Part shown: piece after piece, positions 7,333 through 12,663 of the stretch | Layout of the letters: every line of letters starts with the position of its first letter | How positions within the stretch are numbered: the stretch's first letter is position 1 | Origin: Desulfurococcales archaeon | Lineage (GTDB): Archaea > Thermoproteota > Thermoprotei_A > Sulfolobales > Desulfurococcaceae | Reading direction: 5' to 3' | DNA length: 64,000 nucleotides | NCBI GenBank assembly: GCA_027022365.1 | Contig: JALVYU010000026.1 | Span: 192,001 to 256,000, forward strand | Position numbers and translations under genes: made by a program | The notes under the pieces: model-generated | The model's database searches: none | The model's input: only the letters and a program-made list of their open reading frames with translations | What the model was told of the DNA's origin: nothing

Positions 7333-8025
7333 TTAGAATAATGCTGTACCTATAAGTATTGTTAGGAAGCTGACTAGCGGCACCGTTATGTTGTCATCGA
7401 TCGGGTTTGACTCGAAGTGTTCAACGATGCTTGCAAGTAGGCCTGCTAATGCCCCTATCCATCCTAAGGCTATATATCCTATTGGTATGACTACTGCGGC
7501 CATTGCTATGTTTCCTATCCAGGACTTTGTTCTTTTATTGTACAGCATGTTTCGAATAATACCTGTTACGCCGTCGCCGAACGCCATAAAGGCTACGGGT
7601 ATTACACCGTACCACCAGTTGTGGAAGATTAACCACGCAAGCGTAATGGTTACTCCCCACATAATTATGAAGTGTATCTCGTAGTTGTTCTCCTCTACTT
7701 GGAACCAGTCCATTAGTTGATTCCTTCTTCTAGGCAGCCATGTCAATATGGCTAGGATTACGGCTAGTAGTGCTGGGTACAACGGTGTTGTGTAGAAGAA
7801 TGGTACTAGAACCGATACAAGTCCTCCGGCCAGTATGTGTATTACTTTCCTATTATAGTAGACGGCCTTAATGTGTGTCATCCCTCTAGCACGCATCTTC
7901 TGGTACAAGAACTTCGTCAGTGGTCCGACGACGATCATTACCCAGATGAACAAGACCAGGGTAATTAAGCCCTCCCTAATCAATACACTAATATCCATGT
8001 TGTTCACCGAACCCAGTACATACAA
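7333..8025 (-). CDS. dolichol/phytol kinase-like membrane protein
   Basis: RKVIHIL, FGDGVTG, KSWIG, DDNITVP motifs; multiple TM helices. Confidence 0.75.
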   Translation of the reverse strand: MYVLGSVNNMDISVLIREGLITLVLFIWVMIVVGPLTKFLYQKMRARGMTHIKAVYYNRKVIHILAGGLVSVLVPFFYTTPLYPALLAVILAILTWLPRRRNQLMDWFQVEENNYEIHFIIMWGVTITLAWLIFHNWWYGVIPVAFMAFGDGVTGIIRNMLYNKRTKSWIGNIAMAAVVIPIGYIALGWIGALAGLLASIVEHFESNPIDDNITVPLVSFLTILIGTALF

Positions 8026-8107
8026 TACATACAGCTAAGTACAGCTACACACTAGAAAAATCTTCTAAATGTAAATATAAAAACCATACAGGCACAGAAA
8101 ACCCTCG

Positions 8108-8164
8108 GGGATGATGAAGGCCGTACTCACAGAGACAAGTGAAGAAACCTTTAAGTCCTGACCA
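8108..8164 (+). ncRNA. C/D box guide sRNA, both guides complementary to 16S rRNA
   Basis: C ATGATGA 8111-8117, D' CAGA 8130-8133, C' GTGAAGA 8139-8145, D CTGA 8158-8161. Guides GGCCGTACTC and CCTTTAAGT complement conserved 16S GAGUACGGCC...ACUUAAAGG (16S sequence recalled, not searched). Confidence 0.85.
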
Positions 8165-8181
8165 CGCCAGAAACTCGAAAC

Positions 8182-8240
8182 GTGTGATGAAGGCTAGATA
8201 AACTGAAATACACGGTGATGAAGGTTTCTGGTACTGAAAA
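8182..8240 (+). ncRNA. C/D box guide sRNA
   Basis: Perfect boxes GTGATGA 8184-8190, CTGA 8203-8206, GTGATGA 8215-8221, CTGA 8234-8237, with two 12-nt guides. Confidence 0.85.
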
Positions 8241-8494
8241 CAATTATAGAACACATCAACCCCAACATGATATATTACCAGCATGATCCGAGTTATCACC
8301 GATACCATTGATACATGATTTTATATAGCCTGAACATGCCAGTAAAACAGCCATCTTATAAAAATCGCAATAAATATGAGCCACAAATACACATAGCATC
8401 AGCACATCTCGTTAATTTAATTCCCAGATAACACACCTATACAACTTATTAGAAGAAATGGTGGCGGGGCCCCCACAATGGTAGCGGGGGGTGG

Positions 8495-9207
8495 ATTCTC
8501 CCGGGGCGGCTGTCCGCAGAGTCTTATTCGCTATATGTAATGAGTATTATTGACCCTTTTAAAACTTACTACAAATCTTAGTCAAAGCCCTTTTCTCAGC
8601 TTGATGATGAATATCCATGATGTTATATAGATTGCATACGTTATCTTTTCTACTAATAACTAATCTATAAAATCCCCAGGTCTCGCCATAATTATATCTT
8701 AGAATCTATGCTGATTTTCCTAAGCATTTTGAATATCTAACACTCCGTAATAGTTCACAGAATTGATGATAACTCTATGTTTTTGTTTATCAATATGTCC
8801 TTCATCTATAAATGCTGAGATCCAATTAATGAGTATATTGGGACTTTTTCTTATGAATGCCTGTGCTCTCCATAATTTTTGAATTATTTGCACCTAAACG
8901 TCTAAGTGTGTAGTAAAGATATCTTGATTTAACTCTTGCTATATAGACGTGTTTTTGGATGAATATACAATAGTCGGGCTTATCTTCAAAACATCATATA
9001 TGTCTCTGGCAAATGAACTAATTAGTTCAATTGATTTATTAATATATTCTATAATGTAACGTTTTCCTCTATCTCCTTTCTCGACATATATATGTCCATC
9101 TCCGCAAATATGTGCATGAATCCTTGCAAAATAAGGATTATCCATTAAGGACATGTTATTCCCGTTTTAGATAGAATAGGAGAATATAAAGCGGACAGCC
9201 GCCCCGT
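8495..9207 (-). other. tRNA intervening sequence 3 (T-loop, about 59/60), 713 nt
   Basis: Interrupts TTCAAA|TCCACC; ends closed by a perfect 16-bp inverted repeat (8502-8517 / 9191-9206); relaxed BHB. Junction is ambiguous by 1-2 nt because of A runs. Confidence 0.85.
8558..9154 (-). pseudogene. frameshifted two-motif LAGLIDADG homing endonuclease inside intervening sequence 3
   Basis: Motif 1 FARIHAHICGDGHI in ORF 8939-9154. Further frames give VYIARVKSRYLY, then WISAFIDEGHI (motif 2) ... RVIINSVN, then FYRLVIS. Several frameshifts are required. Confidence 0.75.
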
Positions 9208-9229
9208 TTTGAACCACCGACCTCGGGGT

Positions 9230-9250
9230 GTCCCTGAGGCGGCAGCCTCT
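9230..9250 (-). other. canonical 37/38 tRNA intron, 21 nt
   Basis: AGAGGCTGCCGCCTCAGGGAC: GAGGC/GCCTC hairpin, central helix CUCA/AGGG with one mismatch, bulges UA|A and AC|A. Confidence 0.88.
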
Positions 9251-9306
9251 TATGAGCTTCGCGGGGCGGGGCTACCGTCCCTGCTACTACCTTTATTATT
9301 GGGGGT

Positions 9307-9323
9307 CTTATAAAGTTTTATTC
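9307..9323 (-). promoter_or_regulatory. BRE/TATA-like promoter upstream of the middle tRNA piece
   Basis: GAATAAAACTTTATAAG on the minus strand, about 25 nt upstream of the GC-rich repeat at 9281; overlaps the AbrB stop codon. Confidence 0.55.
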
Positions 9324-9481
9324 TTAGGTGTTATGAGTAAGCCTTTTCTTTTATTGTTAATATAAATTTCGACACTAAGTTCTATCCCTTCTTTCCAGCC
9401 TAAGGCTTCAACTAATTGTTTTGGTAGTGTTATTTCATAGGTGTAATATTTTTGTTTACCTTTCCTCTTTCTAAGTTTCAT
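9308..9481 (-). CDS. AbrB/MazE/SpoVT-family DNA-binding protein, 57 aa (absent from the ORF track)
   Basis: MKLRKRKGKQKYYTYEITLPKQLVEALGWKEGIELSVEIYINNKRKGLLITPKNKTL*; ITLPK....LG...G swapped-hairpin signature; GGTGA RBS upstream of the ATG. Confidence 0.8.
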   Translation of the reverse strand: MKLRKRKGKQKYYTYEITLPKQLVEALGWKEGIELSVEIYINNKRKGLLITPKNKTL

Positions 9482-9514
9482 TATTTCACCAAGAAATACT
9501 ATATAATCGTAGAT

Positions 9515-9550
9515 AATAAATTTATATAGGAATTCTTTACAGAATTCCTA
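9515..9550. promoter_or_regulatory. divergent TATA region and palindromic operator candidate between AbrB and the homing endonuclease
   Basis: AAATTTATATA followed by perfect inverted repeat TAGGAATTCT-ttac-AGAATTCCTA (9527-9550); GAGGTGA RBS before ATG 9565. Confidence 0.6.
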
Positions 9551-9564
9551 ACAGAGGTGAAGAA

Positions 9565-10644
9565 ATGAAGCAGTCTATGGGTAATATTATCGCAAATTTG
9601 CTGGAAAATTATGGATCAAACTATCTTAATAAATGGAAATCAAGAGAACATTTACTGGGTAGAAGAAAGTTTTTGGTATATAATGTCGATGAACAAATAA
9701 AGTCAGAAATTCTATTTCTTCTTTATAAAGAACTTCACAACATAAAAACAACTACCTTTAAAGAAGTAAAGTTCTTGAGTAAGTGCTTAGTAATTAGGTC
9801 AACGCATGAGGCCCCGCTATGGTATAGATTAGGCTTAGCATTAAGCGATGGCTCTGTCCTAGGTAAAAGTAATATAATATTCTCTACATCAAAACCACAC
9901 ACAATAGATGCCGTGATGTATGGATTTAGTTATATAAAGATCTACGTAGCTAGATACATGCTAAGTATAAAAACTAACAAGATAATACCTGTTATTAACA
10001 TCGTAGTGAAGGATCCGGATACTGCATTACTTCTAAGACGTATTAAAGAAAACAAACTAGATACGGATCAATTTATAGATGCACTAGTTAATGATAGAAT
10101 GGCGTTGGCACAATTCCTAGCTGGGATAATAGATGGTGATGGAAGTATAGATTGTGATAATATAAGAATATGCATTGATAAACGTGATCCTCTATACACG
10201 ATTTTACAAAAAATCTTTAGAAATAATTTGGTTTATGATGAAAAACGATATATGTTAAGGATAAAAACACGAGCCGTTAGGGAACTAAGCATTTTAGAAG
10301 AACTAATAAATAACATAGTCTCGGAACATAAGAAAACTATGATTAAAAGAATCCTGAGAAAAAGAAAAAGATTCGTTCTAAACAACATCACATTAACAAA
10401 TTATAAAATTAAAGAAATCCTAGACAAACTTGATAATGATGATCTAAAAACACTTACCTTATTTAAATTTAGAAAAAAGCAAAAATATACCTATGCATAC
10501 ATCTCCTTTAACAAAAAGAATAAAAACTATATATTCAGCTTAATTAACAAGCTACTCTATAAAATAGAATCCGTACTTTTCTTAAACCTCCTCGATTCTG
10601 TTAAGGAAGGTAACAGAGAATATGTAATTTATAACAAAGAATAG
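9565..10644 (+). CDS. LAGLIDADG homing endonuclease (two motifs), antisense to the host tRNA
   Basis: YRLGLALSDGSV and QFLAGIIDGDGSI motifs; Lys/Asn-rich and AT-rich; lies wholly within intervening sequence 1. Confidence 0.85.
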   Translation: MKQSMGNIIANLLENYGSNYLNKWKSREHLLGRRKFLVYNVDEQIKSEILFLLYKELHNIKTTTFKEVKFLSKCLVIRSTHEAPLWYRLGLALSDGSVLGKSNIIFSTSKPHTIDAVMYGFSYIKIYVARYMLSIKTNKIIPVINIVVKDPDTALLLRRIKENKLDTDQFIDALVNDRMALAQFLAGIIDGDGSIDCDNIRICIDKRDPLYTILQKIFRNNLVYDEKRYMLRIKTRAVRELSILEELINNIVSEHKKTMIKRILRKRKRFVLNNITLTNYKIKEILDKLDNDDLKTLTLFKFRKKQKYTYAYISFNKKNKNYIFSLINKLLYKIESVLFLNLLDSVKEGNREYVIYNKE

Positions 10645-10774
10645 TAGAACTTATCAAAACACTTAGAATATATATTGAGATGGGGAAGGGACGGTAGCCC
10701 CTGCACCTCCCGCGGGCTACCTGGCTGCCCTACCCCGCTGTTTTGCCCCGCCGTATTGTTTGTGGTGTTTTTCG

Positions 10775-10792
10775 GTGGTTATAAGGTTTTCT
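10775..10792 (-). promoter_or_regulatory. BRE/TATA promoter of the tRNA-iMet 5' piece
   Basis: AGAAAACCTTATAACC about 40 nt upstream of A1 (10739). Confidence 0.65.
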
Positions 10793-10855
10793 GGGCTTTT
10801 CTTCTTGTTGTGTTGTTTCTTTCTAGGAGGAGGGAGAGGGGAGGGGAAAAAGGAG

Positions 10856-11602
10856 TTATTTTAGCTGGTTTAGCGGTGTGTATGTTTTTGCCGGTATGTA
10901 TGGTAGGATGTGGCGGGTTGTTTTTGGGCTGTATACTTTTCCTTGCCTAGCTATTTCTATTACTTCTTGTTTTGTCGGTGGTTTTCTCAGAAACAGGTAG
11001 TCGATCTCTCCTTTTTCGAGGTCTTGTATTGCTTCTTCGCGTAAGCCGTAATAGGCGAGCTTTATTTTTCCCTCGACGTTAAGCTTGTTTAGGATCTTTG
11101 ATACTTTCTTTTGTTCTTCTACGCCTCCCTTTATGATCCATGCTCTACCGTCTCGAGACAATATTATGAAGGCTATACCTCCCTGCTCCAATAGTTTTAT
11201 CGCTTGCTCCGCATCGAGCTTGGACTCGTTTATATCTAGTTCTTTAGACGCTTCTCGCAGGAAGTCATCGATACTACCTATAATAGCGGGATACCATGTC
11301 TCGAGCCTGATACTATCGTCAAAGTAATCTACGACGATCGCTGGTGCTTTGCGATACCCCAGCTCTTTTAGAGCAGCCCAACGATGATGTCCATCAACAA
11401 TCAAGTACTTATCAGTCCCCGGTATAGGGGCAACTATGATGGGCATATCCACAGCGCCCAAGTCCATGATCATCTTCTTTACATCCTCAAGGCGCTTAGT
11501 AACAATCTCCTCGTGCGGCACCATATTATCAACATCGATCAGAACTGGCTCAACCCGCTTAACCGGTATATTTAGCTTCGGCAGCTTTATGATCACTGAC
11601 AC
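10856..11602 (-). CDS. serK: ParB/Srx-fold free serine kinase
   Basis: PHEE, IVDGHHRWAAL, C-terminal PKTTRH; clustered with serA and a class V aminotransferase. Confidence 0.8.
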   Translation of the reverse strand: MSVIIKLPKLNIPVKRVEPVLIDVDNMVPHEEIVTKRLEDVKKMIMDLGAVDMPIIVAPIPGTDKYLIVDGHHRWAALKELGYRKAPAIVVDYFDDSIRLETWYPAIIGSIDDFLREASKELDINESKLDAEQAIKLLEQGGIAFIILSRDGRAWIIKGGVEEQKKVSKILNKLNVEGKIKLAYYGLREEAIQDLEKGEIDYLFLRKPPTKQEVIEIARQGKVYSPKTTRHILPYIPAKTYTPLNQLK

Positions 11603-11736: not shown

Positions 11737-12663
11737 TTAGTTAGACTTAAAGAATTCAATGATTTTCTCTGCGATCTGGACGCCAGCCCTCTCCTGGGCT
11801 TCGGTAGTCGTCGAGCCTATGTGTGGTGTTAGCACAACATTATCGAACTTGGTCAGCGGATGATCCTTGGGTAGAGGCTCCTCCTCATACACGTCAAGCC
11901 CCGCACCAGCAATCCAACCGTTAGATAATGCCTTGACAAGGGCTTCGGTGTCGACGACGCCGCCTCTTGCGGTGTTTATCAGTATTGCTGAGGGCTTCAT
12001 AAGCTTTAACCGTTCTTCGTTAATCATATGTCTCGTTGAAGGCAGTAAGGGCACGTGCAGGCTGACTATATCAGCTTCCCTCAAAACATCGTCAAGCTCT
12101 CTATACTCGGCATTAAGTTCTCTTTCAACATCTTCTATCTTCCCACGAGCATCATAGTAGATTATCTTCATACCGAAACCATAATAGGCTATACGGGCTA
12201 CCTCCCTGCCAATCCTGCCCATACCGATAATGCCGAGGGTTTTTCCCCTTAGCTCAAACCCCATGCACTGCTTCTTGGCCCAAACACCCTCACGCATCTT
12301 ACGATCGGCGAAGGCGATCTTACGTGCAACAGCAAGCATTAATCCAATAGCTAGCTCGGCAACACTCCTTGAAGGAGCACCGGGAGTATTCAGTACTGTG
12401 ATCCCTTTCTCCTTGGCCGCCTCAAGATCGATGTTATCAATGCCGACGCCAGCCCTGCCAATAACCCTTAGCTTCTCCGCGGCCTCGATAACTCTCCTAG
12501 TAACCCTCGGCTTAGACCTCACAATGATAGCGTCGGCGTCCTTTATCAGCTCGATGAGCTCGTCCTCGGAAGGATACTCTTTAACAATGACTTCGAAGCC
12601 AGCGCTTCGGAGCTTCTCGATCGCTTTGGGATGAAGGGGTGCGGCAACCAGCACCTTTACCAT
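11737..12663 (-). CDS. serA: D-3-phosphoglycerate / D-2-hydroxyacid dehydrogenase
   Basis: RAGVGIDNID, GIIGMGRIG, INTARGGVVD, LTPHIG. Confidence 0.85.
   Translation of the reverse strand: MVKVLVAAPLHPKAIEKLRSAGFEVIVKEYPSEDELIELIKDADAIIVRSKPRVTRRVIEAAEKLRVIGRAGVGIDNIDLEAAKEKGITVLNTPGAPSRSVAELAIGLMLAVARKIAFADRKMREGVWAKKQCMGFELRGKTLGIIGMGRIGREVARIAYYGFGMKIIYYDARGKIEDVERELNAEYRELDDVLREADIVSLHVPLLPSTRHMINEERLKLMKPSAILINTARGGVVDTEALVKALSNGWIAGAGLDVYEEEPLPKDHPLTKFDNVVLTPHIGSTTTEAQERAGVQIAEKIIEFFKSN

Follow-up and report, generated by a model that had tools for sequence, protein, structure and literature searches.

An initiator tRNA-Met gene interrupted by homing-endonuclease genes and probably assembled in part by trans-splicing in a Desulfurococcales archaeon

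The origin of split tRNA genes and their relation to tRNA introns have been debated since 2005. [quoted passage not shown] In the available text of one comparative study, northern blots resolve the two tandem halves of the A. pernix tRNA-Asp gene as distinct transcripts, with read-through seen by RT-PCR only, and this gene was suggested to be a possible evolutionary intermediate with a mobile element as its cause (Chan et al., 2011; PMC3218864). The same text proposes an unidentified mobile element that repeatedly targets the same tRNA position. As reviews summarize it, the tri-split tRNA-Gly of Caldivirga maquilingensis consists of dispersed pieces that are common to isoacceptors (Fujishima et al., 2009, via PMC4033280 and PMC10714607). 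In our literature searches, no report of endonuclease cassettes within split archaeal tRNA genes came up.

Within the window, a 64,000-nt stretch of a Desulfurococcales archaeon genome, the minus strand carries an initiator tRNA-Met(CAU) gene in four exons with interruptions at 30/31 (1451 nt), 37/38 (21 nt), and 59/60 (712 nt). Exon 1 (10739-10709, 31 nt) supplies tRNA positions 1-30, exon 2 (9257-9251, GCTCATA) positions 31-37 with the anticodon inside, exon 3 (9229-9208) positions 38-59, and exon 4 (8495-8479) positions 60-76 with the CCA encoded. Once the gaps are removed, the joined exons form a 77-nt tRNA-Met(cat) with an A1:U72 pair, and their minimum free energy structure is the standard cloverleaf (-36.1 kcal/mol). 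Outside the exons, a 5' leader strand, GGCGGGGC (10752-10745, minus), pairs with a 3' trailer strand, GCCCCGCC (8470-8463, minus), which is followed by ACCA; cofolding pairs both strands, and this leader/trailer pair is found in most relatives and covaries. The locus extends beyond the lower limit given in the original prediction (8520 to 10792), as exon 4, the leader arm that precedes it (8517-8502), and the trailer helix are all found at coordinates below 8520. No second initiator-type gene was found in the genome, which is 99.97% complete and assembled in 44 contigs. Both ARAGORN and Rfam miss the initiator tRNA in the window, so that annotation of genomes from this group will show no initiator tRNA.

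The long gaps divide the gene into piece 1 (exon 1 and its trailer), piece 2 (exons 2 and 3 with the small intron), and a last piece (exon 4), and the ends that face each gap are complementary. At 30/31, the piece 1 trailer arm GGGGCTACCGTCCC (10701-10688, minus) is the exact complement of the 14-nt, GC-rich piece 2 leader arm GGGACGGTAGCCCC (9281-9268, minus), as had been anticipated; the helix is perfect over 14-15 bp, with a cofold gain of -13.5 kcal/mol, and the expected pyrimidine run, CTTCCCCATCTC, occupies 10688-10677 (minus), following the trailer arm. Similarly, at 59/60 the piece 2 trailer arm CGGGGCGGCTGTCCGC (9206-9191, minus) is a 16-nt exact complement of the last-piece leader arm GCGGACAGCCGCCCCG (8517-8502, minus), forming a perfect 16-bp helix with a cofold gain of -22.2 kcal/mol. 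As in split tRNAs, these GC-rich trailers and leaders adjoin BHB motifs. Perfect arms of 13-20 bp occur at long gaps only, the median for 21 short introns being 5 bp (range 2-11), and the arm pairs differ in sequence between lineages with their complementarity kept. Read by hand, BHB motifs with two 3-nt bulges and a 4-bp helix between them lie at the exon junctions. The 30/31 motif has a central helix CGCG/CGCG and junctions within the bulges (GG/A and AA/G), and it is of a relaxed form in which the exon-side outer helix is missing or weak; unconstrained cofolding did not reproduce the canonical 30/31 motif and preferred a continuous helix with a 4-nt bulge. The hand-read motifs at 37/38 and 59/60 have both outer helices, with three of four central pairs formed.

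The 30/31 gap (10708-9258, minus; GC 0.31) contains a 359-aa LAGLIDADG homing-endonuclease gene on the plus strand (9565-10644), antisense to the tRNA. Its product has two LAGLIDADG motifs, LGLALSDGS and FLAGxIDGDG, with D95 and D192 invariant in all four aligned sequences, and its AlphaFold model (pLDDT 86.7) has a LAGLIDADG fold; the Pfam LAGLIDADG_3 score of 20.7 bits falls below the curated cut-off of 22.5. The best PDB structures among the Foldseek matches listed were bI3 maturase, PI-PfuI, I-Tsp061I, I-AniI, and I-DmoI, with E-values down to 4e-5 and TM-scores of only 0.3-0.5; a LAGLIDADG domain of WhiA was also among the top matches listed. Atlas neighbours of this ORF bear LAGLIDADG_3, which is a lead only. 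In all seven full-length relatives, too, the endonuclease gene runs antisense to exon 1 and lies immediately next to the trailer of that exon. Additionally, the gap encodes a 57-aa AbrB/MazE-like ORF in the tRNA sense (9481-9308, minus), which scores 28.9 bits with Pfam PF04014 (cut-off 24.7) and 16.7 bits, below the cut-off, with the NCBIfam AbrB model; the genomes G005 and G035 have it too (62% identity in G035). An mRNA of this sense gene would enter piece 2 and could supply it without a TATA box. The two genes are separated by a divergent promoter region (9482-9564) with matrix matches on both strands, at 9493-9508 (10.4 bits) and 9514-9529 (8.4 bits) on the plus strand and at 9535-9520 (6.0 bits) on the minus strand. 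The tRNA-sense strand of the gap contains 12 runs of five or more T in 1451 nt, compared with 0.33 per kb on the sense strands of long ORFs. Directly behind the piece 1 trailer there is no T5 run, the first T4 lying at 10659 and the first T5 at 10526.

Promoter-like sites were scored with a 16-mer matrix built from 44 tRNA upstream regions of the host genome, a training set of ARAGORN calls that is partly wrong for tRNAs with non-canonical introns. By this measure of sequence, pieces 1, 2, and last each have a candidate promoter of their own, of 10.5, 12.5, and 6.9 bits. The BRE/TATA-like box of piece 1, GAAAACCTTATAACCA (10791-10776, minus), ends 36 nt upstream of the start of the mature tRNA and includes the CTTATAA that had been pointed out (10785-10779). 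The box of piece 2, ATAAAACTTTATAAGA (9321-9306, minus), ends 23 nt before the leader helix, outscores the box at the gene's own 5' end, ranks first among the 2435 sense-strand positions of the locus, and stands above 66% of tRNA promoters; here the predicted BRE and TTTATAA were recovered, with TTTATAA at 9314-9308 and AAAAC before it. The weak box of the last piece, AGTAAGTTTTAAAAGG (8570-8555, minus), within which the original prediction had singled out TTTTAAAA (8564-8557), ends 37 nt before the leader helix, ranks ninth in the locus, and stands above 23% of tRNA promoters; its score is reached by 4.7% of 360 control windows and, taken alone, it is marginal. Both internal boxes were also said to coincide with stop codons of the embedded ORFs. 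Each does overlap a TAA, that of the AbrB-like ORF (9310-9308) in the first case and, in the second, one at 8561-8559 that closes a 48-aa frame of the broken gene in the 59/60 gap, but the native stop of the latter gene family is a TGA 18 nt upstream (8584-8582). Since, moreover, the box of G035 lies ~115 nt beyond the AbrB-like ORF, the overlap is lineage-specific and incidental rather than a feature of design.

The two remaining interruptions differ in kind. The 21-nt sequence at 37/38 (9250-9230, minus; inner helix GAGGC/GCCTC) is an ordinary short BHB intron. The 59/60 gap (9207-8496, minus; GC 0.33) contains a LAGLIDADG gene in the tRNA sense that is broken into frames at 9154-8939, 8893-8720, 8705-8559, and 8659-8582 (minus), and whose G005 orthologue is intact (192 aa; LAGLIDADG_3 31.7 bits, above the cut-off). 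No run of five or more T occurs on the sense strand of these 712 nt, and across lineages the 59/60 gaps have 0-1 T5 runs. A promoter-like site ahead of this ORF is absent in six of six lineages (-0.2 bits or less), so transcription of piece 2 must enter the gap if the ORF is to be expressed. These sequence features favour one primary transcript that spans the exons and the gap, and the 59/60 junction may well be spliced in cis.

Compared with the described systems, the locus resembles A. pernix tRNA-Asp as portrayed in Chan et al. (2011; PMC3218864), where the halves are also adjacent on the same strand, a GC-rich stem of ~14 bp adjoins the BHB, and a BRE/TATA element lies inside the 'intron', there 20-25 nt upstream of the intron's 3' end. 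The A. pernix gap, however, is ~121 nt long and sits at 37/38, with no gene mentioned in that text, whereas gaps of 1451 and 712 nt with LAGLIDADG genes break the host gene at 30/31 and 59/60; further, that gene encodes tRNA-Asp rather than the initiator, and its separate transcripts are shown by northern blot where ours are inferred. [quoted passage not shown] Its halves, unlike the collinear initiator pieces, are kilobases apart or permuted, which makes trans-splicing obligatory there, and no endonuclease gene between them is mentioned in that source. The Thermofilum pendens initiator tRNA-Met, again in Chan et al. (2011), is the same tRNA, is broken at 59/60, and has a 37/38 intron, but that gene is circularly permuted, a short spacer and one promoter taking the place of a collinear arrangement with a 712-nt, gene-bearing gap. 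With the LAGLIDADG introns of archaeal rRNA the locus shares BHB boundaries, a stable-RNA host gene, a monomeric two-motif LAGLIDADG protein, and variable presence among relatives; the 59/60 element matches that pattern. The host gene here is nevertheless a tRNA gene, and the 30/31 element departs from the pattern in its antisense endonuclease, its second gene, and its promoter-like box for the downstream part of the tRNA.

Of the 38 genomes that have the initiator gene, 20 carry it uninterrupted or with short introns only. The host exons are identical or almost so to the uninterrupted genes, and the site of the 30/31 endonuclease is uninterrupted in relatives, a polymorphism of homing type. 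In G003, of the same genus, the endonuclease at this site is only 41% identical while the flanking DNA is 78.5% identical; the 59/60 element of G007 has 92% DNA identity within an unrelated flank. G005 retains the host architecture, with a nucleotide identity that varies along the sequence (94-97%), and three more lineages (L072, L073, and L074) show the same layout. At gaps of at least 160 nt at 30/31 and 37/38, a distance of 21-27 nt separates the end of the best box from the leader helix at 10 of 10 measurable junctions, and the spacers between box and helix are unrelated in sequence with the position conserved. Scores of at least 6.9 bits are found in 13 of 15 junction windows, which come from related genomes and so are not fully independent, as against 4.7% of the controls; the low-scoring boxes are that of G011 (3.5 bits) and that of the G024 middle piece (6.3 bits). 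Equivalents of the last-piece box score 12.9 (G019), 12.3 (G026), and 11.1 bits (L074). In G026, exon 1 and exons 2-4 are encoded on different strands, and the arms measure 12 bp. G024 also has its exon 1 on the other strand, together with a separate middle exon of 7 nt that has its own TATA box; the arms there are 16 and 14 bp long. With pieces on opposite strands, trans-splicing is obligatory in both, and G024 is by arrangement tri-split. As far as the reviews describe it, the Caldivirga tri-split tRNA likewise has three pieces, leaders that correspond to introns of related species, and one canonical with at least one non-canonical junction, but the pieces of our host stand in tandem; the one exception in this comparison is the relative G024, in which a piece is encoded on the other strand and the middle exon has just 7 nt.

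The host genome contains two further tRNAs of similar construction. Its tRNA-Lys(CUU), of Staphylothermus type, is split at 30/31, with a distance of 3.9 kb between the halves, whose order is permuted; a 9.2-bit box ends 25 nt before the leader, and the 5' half ends in a pyrimidine run of the same kind as in initiator piece 1. The tRNA-Phe(GAA) gene is built like the initiator gene: its 30/31 gap measures 666 nt, its box scores 16.1 bits and stops 22 nt short of the leader, and the 5' trailer is followed by a T6 run. The pieces of tRNA-Lys(CUU), like those of G024 and G026, are unable to share one transcript, which is not the case for the host initiator gene. The collinear arrangement of its pieces would physically allow a cis precursor of 2.3 kb, and A. 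pernix does produce small amounts of read-through RNA. The genome also encodes the processing enzymes, a splicing endonuclease with two PF01974 (EndA-family) genes (104.5 and 40.6 bits) and an RtcB ligase (605 bits).

From these data we infer which transcripts are made. The 30/31 gap would be a homing-endonuclease cassette, composed of the antisense LAGLIDADG gene and the AbrB-like sense gene, which are separated by a divergent promoter, and bracketed by GC-rich arms. Piece 1 would be transcribed from its own promoter, with transcription ending shortly past the trailer, and the remainder of the gene from a second promoter, starting ~4 nt ahead of the complementary leader. The two RNAs would then pair through their arms and display the BHB motif, which the two-subunit splicing endonuclease would cleave before RtcB ligates the exons, that is, trans-splicing at 30/31. 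The 37/38 sequence would be removed as an ordinary cis intron, and the 59/60 gap, a classical endonuclease-bearing BHB intron whose sense ORF is now broken, would probably share a transcript with piece 2 and be spliced in cis, with the weak internal box also permitting the 17-nt last exon to join in trans. We assign a probability of roughly 0.6 to this explanation as a whole, including that the split gene is the sole, functional initiator tRNA-Met gene of the organism.

Alternatively, the gene might be a true tri-split, in which exon 1, exons 2-3 with the small intron, and exon 4 are expressed from three promoters and assembled in trans with negligible read-through. A TATA-like box does precede each piece at an appropriate distance, the counterpart of the exon 4 box is strong in G019, G026, and L074, the 59/60 arms are as long and perfect as those of other long gaps, and G024 has just such an arrangement. 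In the host, however, the exon 4 box reaches only the level of 4.7% of control windows, the sense ORF of the 59/60 gap is promoterless in all six lineages, and the gap is free of T5 runs. We therefore consider this reading unlikely, and the tri-split suggested by the original prediction, borne out as to a box before each piece, is probably too strong a term for the host genome.

Somewhat less likely still is a gene spliced entirely in cis, where two of the three BHB introns owe their unusual length to endonuclease genes, as in archaeal rRNA, and in which the boxes arise by chance in AT-rich DNA or serve the ORFs. Collinear pieces on one strand, a BHB that can be drawn at all three junctions, and a first internal box that overlaps a stop codon all fit such a gene, as does a gap GC content of 31-33%, at which TATA-like words are common. 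Yet the piece 2 box is the top match of the locus, its position at the ORFs' 3' end leaves it unable to serve them, and its spacing recurs in 10 of 10 measured relative junctions with unrelated flanks. Moreover, the T-run density and the antisense endonuclease, conserved in seven of seven relatives, point away from read-through; arms of at least 13 bp are confined to long gaps; and the inversions in G024 and G026 would be tolerable only if trans-splicing already worked. Collectively, the sequence features at 30/31 argue against a single primary transcript there. Decay of the gene, with a working initiator tRNA elsewhere or absent from the assembly, could draw on the one broken endonuclease gene of two and on the 44 contigs, but is very improbable given exons that match the relatives' uninterrupted genes, perfectly complementary arms, an architecture maintained in G005, and the lack of a second initiator-type gene in the nearly complete genome.

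The proposal that the locus is a possible intermediate between a cis intron and a trans-spliced split tRNA is supported, the strong and positionally conserved box before piece 2 being part of the evidence. The proposal that endonuclease-bearing introns may generate split tRNAs is likewise consistent with our tests, including the obligate-trans relatives and the host tRNA-Lys(CUU) with the same spacing. More tentatively, and with the odds slightly against it, the 30/31 element may represent a novel type of homing element, in which a LAGLIDADG cassette carries with it both GC-rich BHB arms and a promoter from which the downstream portion of the host gene is expressed. Its insertion would split an essential tRNA gene that the host endonuclease and ligase repair at the RNA level, with no transcription through the element; such cassettes could be the mobile elements that create split tRNA genes, with inversion (as in G026 and G024) or endonuclease decay leading to 'classical' split and tri-split tRNAs. 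A mobile element appears to be caught in place at the initiator tRNA locus. Within one Desulfurococcales family, a single essential gene presents a graded series from uninterrupted, through short cis introns and endonuclease-bearing gaps of 0.7-1.6 kb with internal promoter-like boxes, to pieces divided between the two strands, one such case being a tri-split that has an exon of 7 nt, and the pathway from intron to split gene thereby becomes testable. The long gaps of the initiator gene lie about ten times above the published range for archaeal tRNA introns, 11-129 nt (2014 review, PMC4090602).

The window carries, on its minus strand, a tRNA-Met(CAU) gene of the initiator type that is divided into four exons: exon 1 at 10739-10709 (positions 1-30), exon 2 at 9257-9251 (GCTCATA, positions 31-37), exon 3 at 9229-9208 (positions 38-59) and exon 4 at 8495-8479 (positions 60-76, with CCA encoded), the splice junctions having been placed by reasoning from the cloverleaf. 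Joined by these coordinates, the exons give 77 nt that ARAGORN calls as tRNA-Met(cat), with a perfect cloverleaf and the archaeal initiator A1:U72 pair. ARAGORN called no tRNA in the raw window, Rfam gave no match across it at gathering threshold, and a permissive Rfam scan of 8000-11200 (E up to 10) returned sub-threshold C/D-box matches only. No second initiator-type gene was found in the source genome (1.74 Mb in 44 contigs, 99.97% complete), whose remaining two CAT tRNAs are one elongator and one bacterial-looking gene on a 5-kb contig; given the lack of another initiator-type gene in a near-complete genome, this gene must work. The bacterial-looking tRNA-Met (contig C1, 4385-4457, on 5.4 kb) may reflect contamination of the bin. 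The arrangement recurs in DNA contigs of other assemblies, one (X4) covering 9208-10772 and another (X13) covering 8459-9581, and in the DNA contigs of some community members 13-18 other nucleotides, or 687 others, stand in place of the 59/60 gap.

Three interruptions separate the exons on this strand, at 30/31 (10708-9258, 1451 nt, GC 0.31), 37/38 (9250-9230, 21 nt) and 59/60 (9207-8496, 712 nt, GC 0.33); a 2014 review gives a range of 11-129 nt for archaeal tRNA introns (PMC4090602). Read by hand, all three junctions can be drawn as bulge-helix-bulge (BHB) motifs with cleavage past the second bulge base. At 30/31 the central helix, CGCG/CGCG, is perfect and flanked by the bulges GG↓A and AA↓G, but the exon-side helix is missing. 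At 37/38 and 59/60 both outer helices are present, and three of the four central positions pair. Beside the BHB, each long gap is bounded by perfect GC-rich complementary arms, 10701-10688 with 9281-9268 at 30/31 (14-15 bp) and 9206-9191 with 8517-8502 at 59/60 (16 bp). Cofolding of the putative pieces gains -13.5 kcal/mol at 30/31 and -22.2 kcal/mol at 59/60, the unconstrained cofold at 30/31 being a continuous helix with a 4-nt bulge and not a canonical BHB. Perfect arms of 13-20 bp are confined to long gaps, such as the 1289-nt gap of the relative G003 (18-bp arm), and across 21 short introns the median length of the longest perfect stem is 5 bp (range 2-11); in another relative, G035, 9 perfect bp lie inside a longer imperfect arm.

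A separate 8-bp helix encloses the whole initiator tRNA, formed by the 5' leader at 10752-10745 and the 3' trailer at 8470-8463 (GGCGGGGC/GCCCCGCC), and may be a processing stem. A leader/trailer pair of this kind occurs, with covariation, in about 20 of the 27 loci examined (for instance TGGGGCC/GGCCCCA, TGGGAGG/CCTCCCA, GGGGGGC/GCCCCCC), and six loci lack it in the trailer; a search by hand found no canonical BHB in this helix. Directly after the trailer strand stands ACCA, resembling a second acceptor end, and GCCCCGCC is found again inside the leader of the piece holding exons 2 and 3 (9272-9265).

The original prediction assigned a TATA-like box to each tRNA piece, and every one of its motifs is in place. 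Their excess over chance in AT-rich DNA was assessed with a 16-mer BRE/TATA matrix derived from the regions upstream of 44 ARAGORN-called tRNA genes of the same genome. The box at 9321-9306 (ATAAAACTTTATAAGA), ahead of exons 2-3, scores 12.5 bits, the highest of 2435 positions on the tRNA-sense strand (10850-8400), and exceeds 66% of the tRNA promoters; the promoter at the 5' end of the gene itself (10791-10776) scores 10.5 bits, and the box before exon 4 (8570-8555) ranks ninth with 6.9 bits. The first of these boxes ends 23 nt ahead of its leader arm, with a predicted start about 26 nt from the TATA centre at A9285 or G9284, 3-4 nt ahead of the arm, and the box before exon 4 ends 37 nt ahead of its own arm. 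The coincidence of both internal boxes with stop codons, also part of the prediction, is literally true in the source genome; the overlap is incidental, because the native stop of the intron-3 gene lies 18 nt upstream and the box in G035 lies about 115 nt past the AbrB-like ORF. Another candidate, TTTATATT at 9190-9183, considered as promoter of a leaderless intron-3 mRNA, was rejected with a score of -0.2 bits and is absent in three relatives (G019, G026 and the locus L074).

Both long gaps carry genes. A 359-aa ORF in the 30/31 gap (9565-10644, plus strand, antisense to the tRNA) matches LAGLIDADG_3 of Pfam at 20.7 bits, below the 22.5 cut-off; both LAGLIDADG motifs are present, and D95 and D192 are invariant in four aligned relatives. 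Its AlphaFold model (pLDDT 86.7) finds LAGLIDADG proteins as best PDB matches (bI3 maturase, PI-PfuI, I-Tsp061I, I-DmoI and I-AniI), with E-values down to 4e-5 and modest TM-scores of 0.3-0.5; I-Tsp061I and I-DmoI are archaeal intron enzymes, and the Atlas neighbours of the ORF are consistent with the assignment. NCBIfam gave no match to this ORF, and phmmer searches of PDB sequences with it and with the intron-3 ORF of the congeneric genome G005 returned nothing meaningful (E of at least 0.2). Divergent from the 359-aa ORF, on the tRNA strand, is a 57-aa AbrB/MazE-type ORF (9481-9308; PF04014, 28.9 bits versus a cut-off of 24.7). In the 59/60 gap lies a second LAGLIDADG gene, on the sense strand and broken in the source genome; G005 (192 aa, matching LAGLIDADG_3 at 31.7 bits) and three other relatives (G007, G019 and G026) have it intact. 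No further copies of either endonuclease were found by tblastn against the source genome.

To survey the locus among relatives, we compared it by BLAST with 41 genomes (the source and 40 relatives), fetched all 38 matching loci and placed their exons; the three genomes without a match are 79%, 77% and 99% complete. Twenty of the 38 loci have no intron or only short ones (<100 nt), an example of an uninterrupted allele being the G014 type; 16, including the source genome, have at least one gap of at least 160 nt with all detected pieces on one strand (four being cut by contig ends), and two have pieces on opposite strands. The 110 nt upstream of the 3' exon were searched for the best matrix match at each long gap. 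At 30/31 and 37/38 the end of this match lies 21-27 nt ahead of the leader helix in all ten junctions with a measurable helix, and at four 59/60 junctions it lies 22-37 nt ahead. When the seven 30/31 junctions are aligned on the 3' splice site, all have an AAAG(N)TTTATAAG-type box at about -50, amid unrelated spacers and upstream sequence. The best scores in 15 junction windows have a median of 9.0 bits, compared with 0.23 in 360 control windows from the same gaps, and reach at least 6.9 bits in 13 of 15 against 4.7% of controls (Mann-Whitney p = 4.5e-10, overstated since kin are not independent); the two windows that fall short come from G011, at 3.5 bits, and from the G024 middle piece, at 6.3 bits. 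Searching the species collection with an alignment of the endonuclease yielded seven full-length relatives, and in each of them the endonuclease gene runs antisense to exon 1, directly against the trailer of that exon. Of the seven, four match known arrangements and are probably the genomes already surveyed, and three are new (L072, L073 and L074) and carry the same box.

In the two relatives with pieces on opposite strands, the arrangement is obligately trans. G026 has exon 1 and the adjoining antisense endonuclease gene on one strand and exons 2-4 with an intact intron-3 gene on the other, where a box (AAAGTTTAAAAGCC) stands 20 nt ahead of a leader that pairs over 12 bp with the trailer of exon 1. 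G024 (locus L029, contig C4, 191000-194600) is tri-partite: exon 1 is on the minus strand (2596-2566 of the locus), and the other units are on the plus strand (about 2091-2176 and 2337-2374). The middle unit, about 400 nt from exon 1, has its own TATA box and consists of AAAAGTTTATAAAG, 23 nt, a 16-nt leader complementary to the trailer of exon 1, a 7-nt exon that supplies the anticodon loop (GCTCATA) and a 14-nt trailer; a second box, ahead of the complementary leader of exons 3-4, comes about 110 nt beyond it. The joined exons of both genomes are called as tRNA-Met(cat), the 3' junction assigned to the last piece of G024 possibly being off by a few bases because its lineage seems to have a further short intron. 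In this and five other genomes (G006, G016, G029, G022 and G018; loci L015, L016, L020, L025 and L028), ...cctcggRgRY-AC-a... is conserved upstream of exon 3 and the base before CCCGAGG varies (T, G, A), which suggests that position 39/40 holds one more short intron in these lineages, next to a micro-exon of 2 nt (AC). Had trans-splicing not been functional beforehand in a collinear ancestor, inversions of this kind would be lethal; this is the strongest argument that the homologous box of the source genome is a working promoter.

Whether the source gene is spliced in cis or in trans is best considered junction by junction. Splicing in cis at 30/31 would depend on a full-length precursor, and on the tRNA-sense strand this gap of 1451 nt holds 12 T-runs of at least five (8.3 per kb), compared with 0.33 per kb on the sense strands of long ORFs and 1.65 per kb on their antisense strands. 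Archaeal RNA polymerase terminates at oligo-T tracts. These runs, the conserved antisense orientation of the endonuclease gene and the strong promoter-like box downstream combine to make a precursor reading through 30/31 unlikely. At 59/60 the ORF is in sense orientation, the gap contains no T5 run in the source genome (0-1 in relatives), and none of six lineages has a promoter-like site before the ORF (best -0.2 bits), so that expression of the endonuclease would require transcription from the promoter of exons 2-3 to enter the gap; such transcription probably continues as far as exon 4. The box ahead of exon 4, weak in the source genome, is strong in G019, G026 and L074. We therefore read the gene, from its sequence, as split at 30/31 and interrupted by an ordinary intron at 37/38, with the 59/60 junction capable of splicing in cis and backed up by a promoter of its own. 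The intermediate between cis-intron and trans-split tRNA that the original prediction proposed is thus supported at the level of sequence and comparison, by the junction features, the relatives and other tRNAs of the same genome. A precedent is tRNA-Asp of A. pernix, whose tandem halves are separate transcripts with trace read-through and were called a "possible evolutionary intermediate" by Chan et al. (PMC3218864).

Two further tRNAs of the source genome have similar features. The tRNA-Lys(CUU) gene is split at 30/31 in permuted order, with its 5' half at 151934 on the minus strand of contig C7, its 3' half about 3.9 kb upstream (about 155818-155750, minus strand) and 15-nt arms, the arrangement published for Staphylothermus (PMC3218864); a 9.2-bit box ends 25 nt before the 15-nt leader of the 3' half, and the 5' half ends in TTCCTCATTT, which resembles TTCCCCATCTC after the trailer of initiator exon 1. 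The tRNA-Phe(GAA) gene, outside the window on the minus strand of contig C26 (c325169-324429), is interrupted at 30/31 by 666 nt that end in the same GCGAA↓G 3' junction and contain a LAGLIDADG-like ORF, in sense orientation and broken. A T6 run follows 35 nt past the 5' trailer, and a 16.1-bit box ends 22 nt before a 15-nt leader arm and exceeds the 5' promoter of the gene (13.0 bits); this is a second tRNA of the same build. The genome encodes RtcB (C26, 388867-390171) and two EndA-family proteins (in the C26 regions 594618-594869 and 391845-392081), the number expected of a broad-specificity splicing heterotetramer. Near 526336 on the minus strand of C26, the first ~40 nt of a tRNA-Ala(GGC) stand alone with their own AAAACTTTATAAGC box and continue into unrelated sequence; the fragment may represent a further split piece or the scar of an integration.

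Within the genus, G005 has the same architecture, with 97% identity over the 2.35-kb locus and 94% over a longer stretch with flanks, and its endonucleases are in the reverse state to the source genome, frameshifted in the 30/31 gap and intact at 59/60. G003 and G002 lack the 59/60 gap, and their 30/31 endonuclease is only 41% identical in protein, with the flank of G003 78.5% identical in DNA to that of the source genome. G007, from another genus, is uninterrupted at 30/31 and 37/38 and has a 59/60 element of 92% DNA identity next to a flank without similarity to the source genome (its contig is 2.3 kb long, and the bin shows 7% contamination). Seventeen species records, most of them from Desulfurococcales, have short introns at 30/31 that share the boundaries CGGG↓AGG...CCGCGAA↓G. 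The pattern is that of homing elements, which are gained, decay and give way to others.

The BHB introns of archaeal rRNA genes are known to carry LAGLIDADG genes. Split, tri-split and permuted tRNAs have already been described, as have junctions at 30/31 and 59/60 (PMC3218864, PMC4033280). Our literature search, which covered sources other than subscription journals, found no description of an archaeal tRNA gene whose pieces are separated by endonuclease genes, nor of a split initiator tRNA in Desulfurococcales. The window adds conserved internal promoter-like boxes, an antisense cassette and a sense intron inside one gene, and a graded series among kin that extends to a tri-split gene with a 7-nt exon.

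The flanks of the locus hold several other features. Two tandem C/D-box sRNA-like sequences on the plus strand (8107-8163 and 8181-8240) have clear C, D', C' and D boxes at scores below Rfam gathering (sR41, 19.3 bits; sR5, 22.1 bits, E = 0.037), and overlap a probably spurious 87-aa ORF (8045-8308). Upstream of the tRNA, on the minus strand, lies a gene for an L-serine kinase SerK-type protein (10856-11602; SerK_C 116.5 bits, ParB_N 37.8 bits), followed by a 308-aa ORF at 11737-12663.
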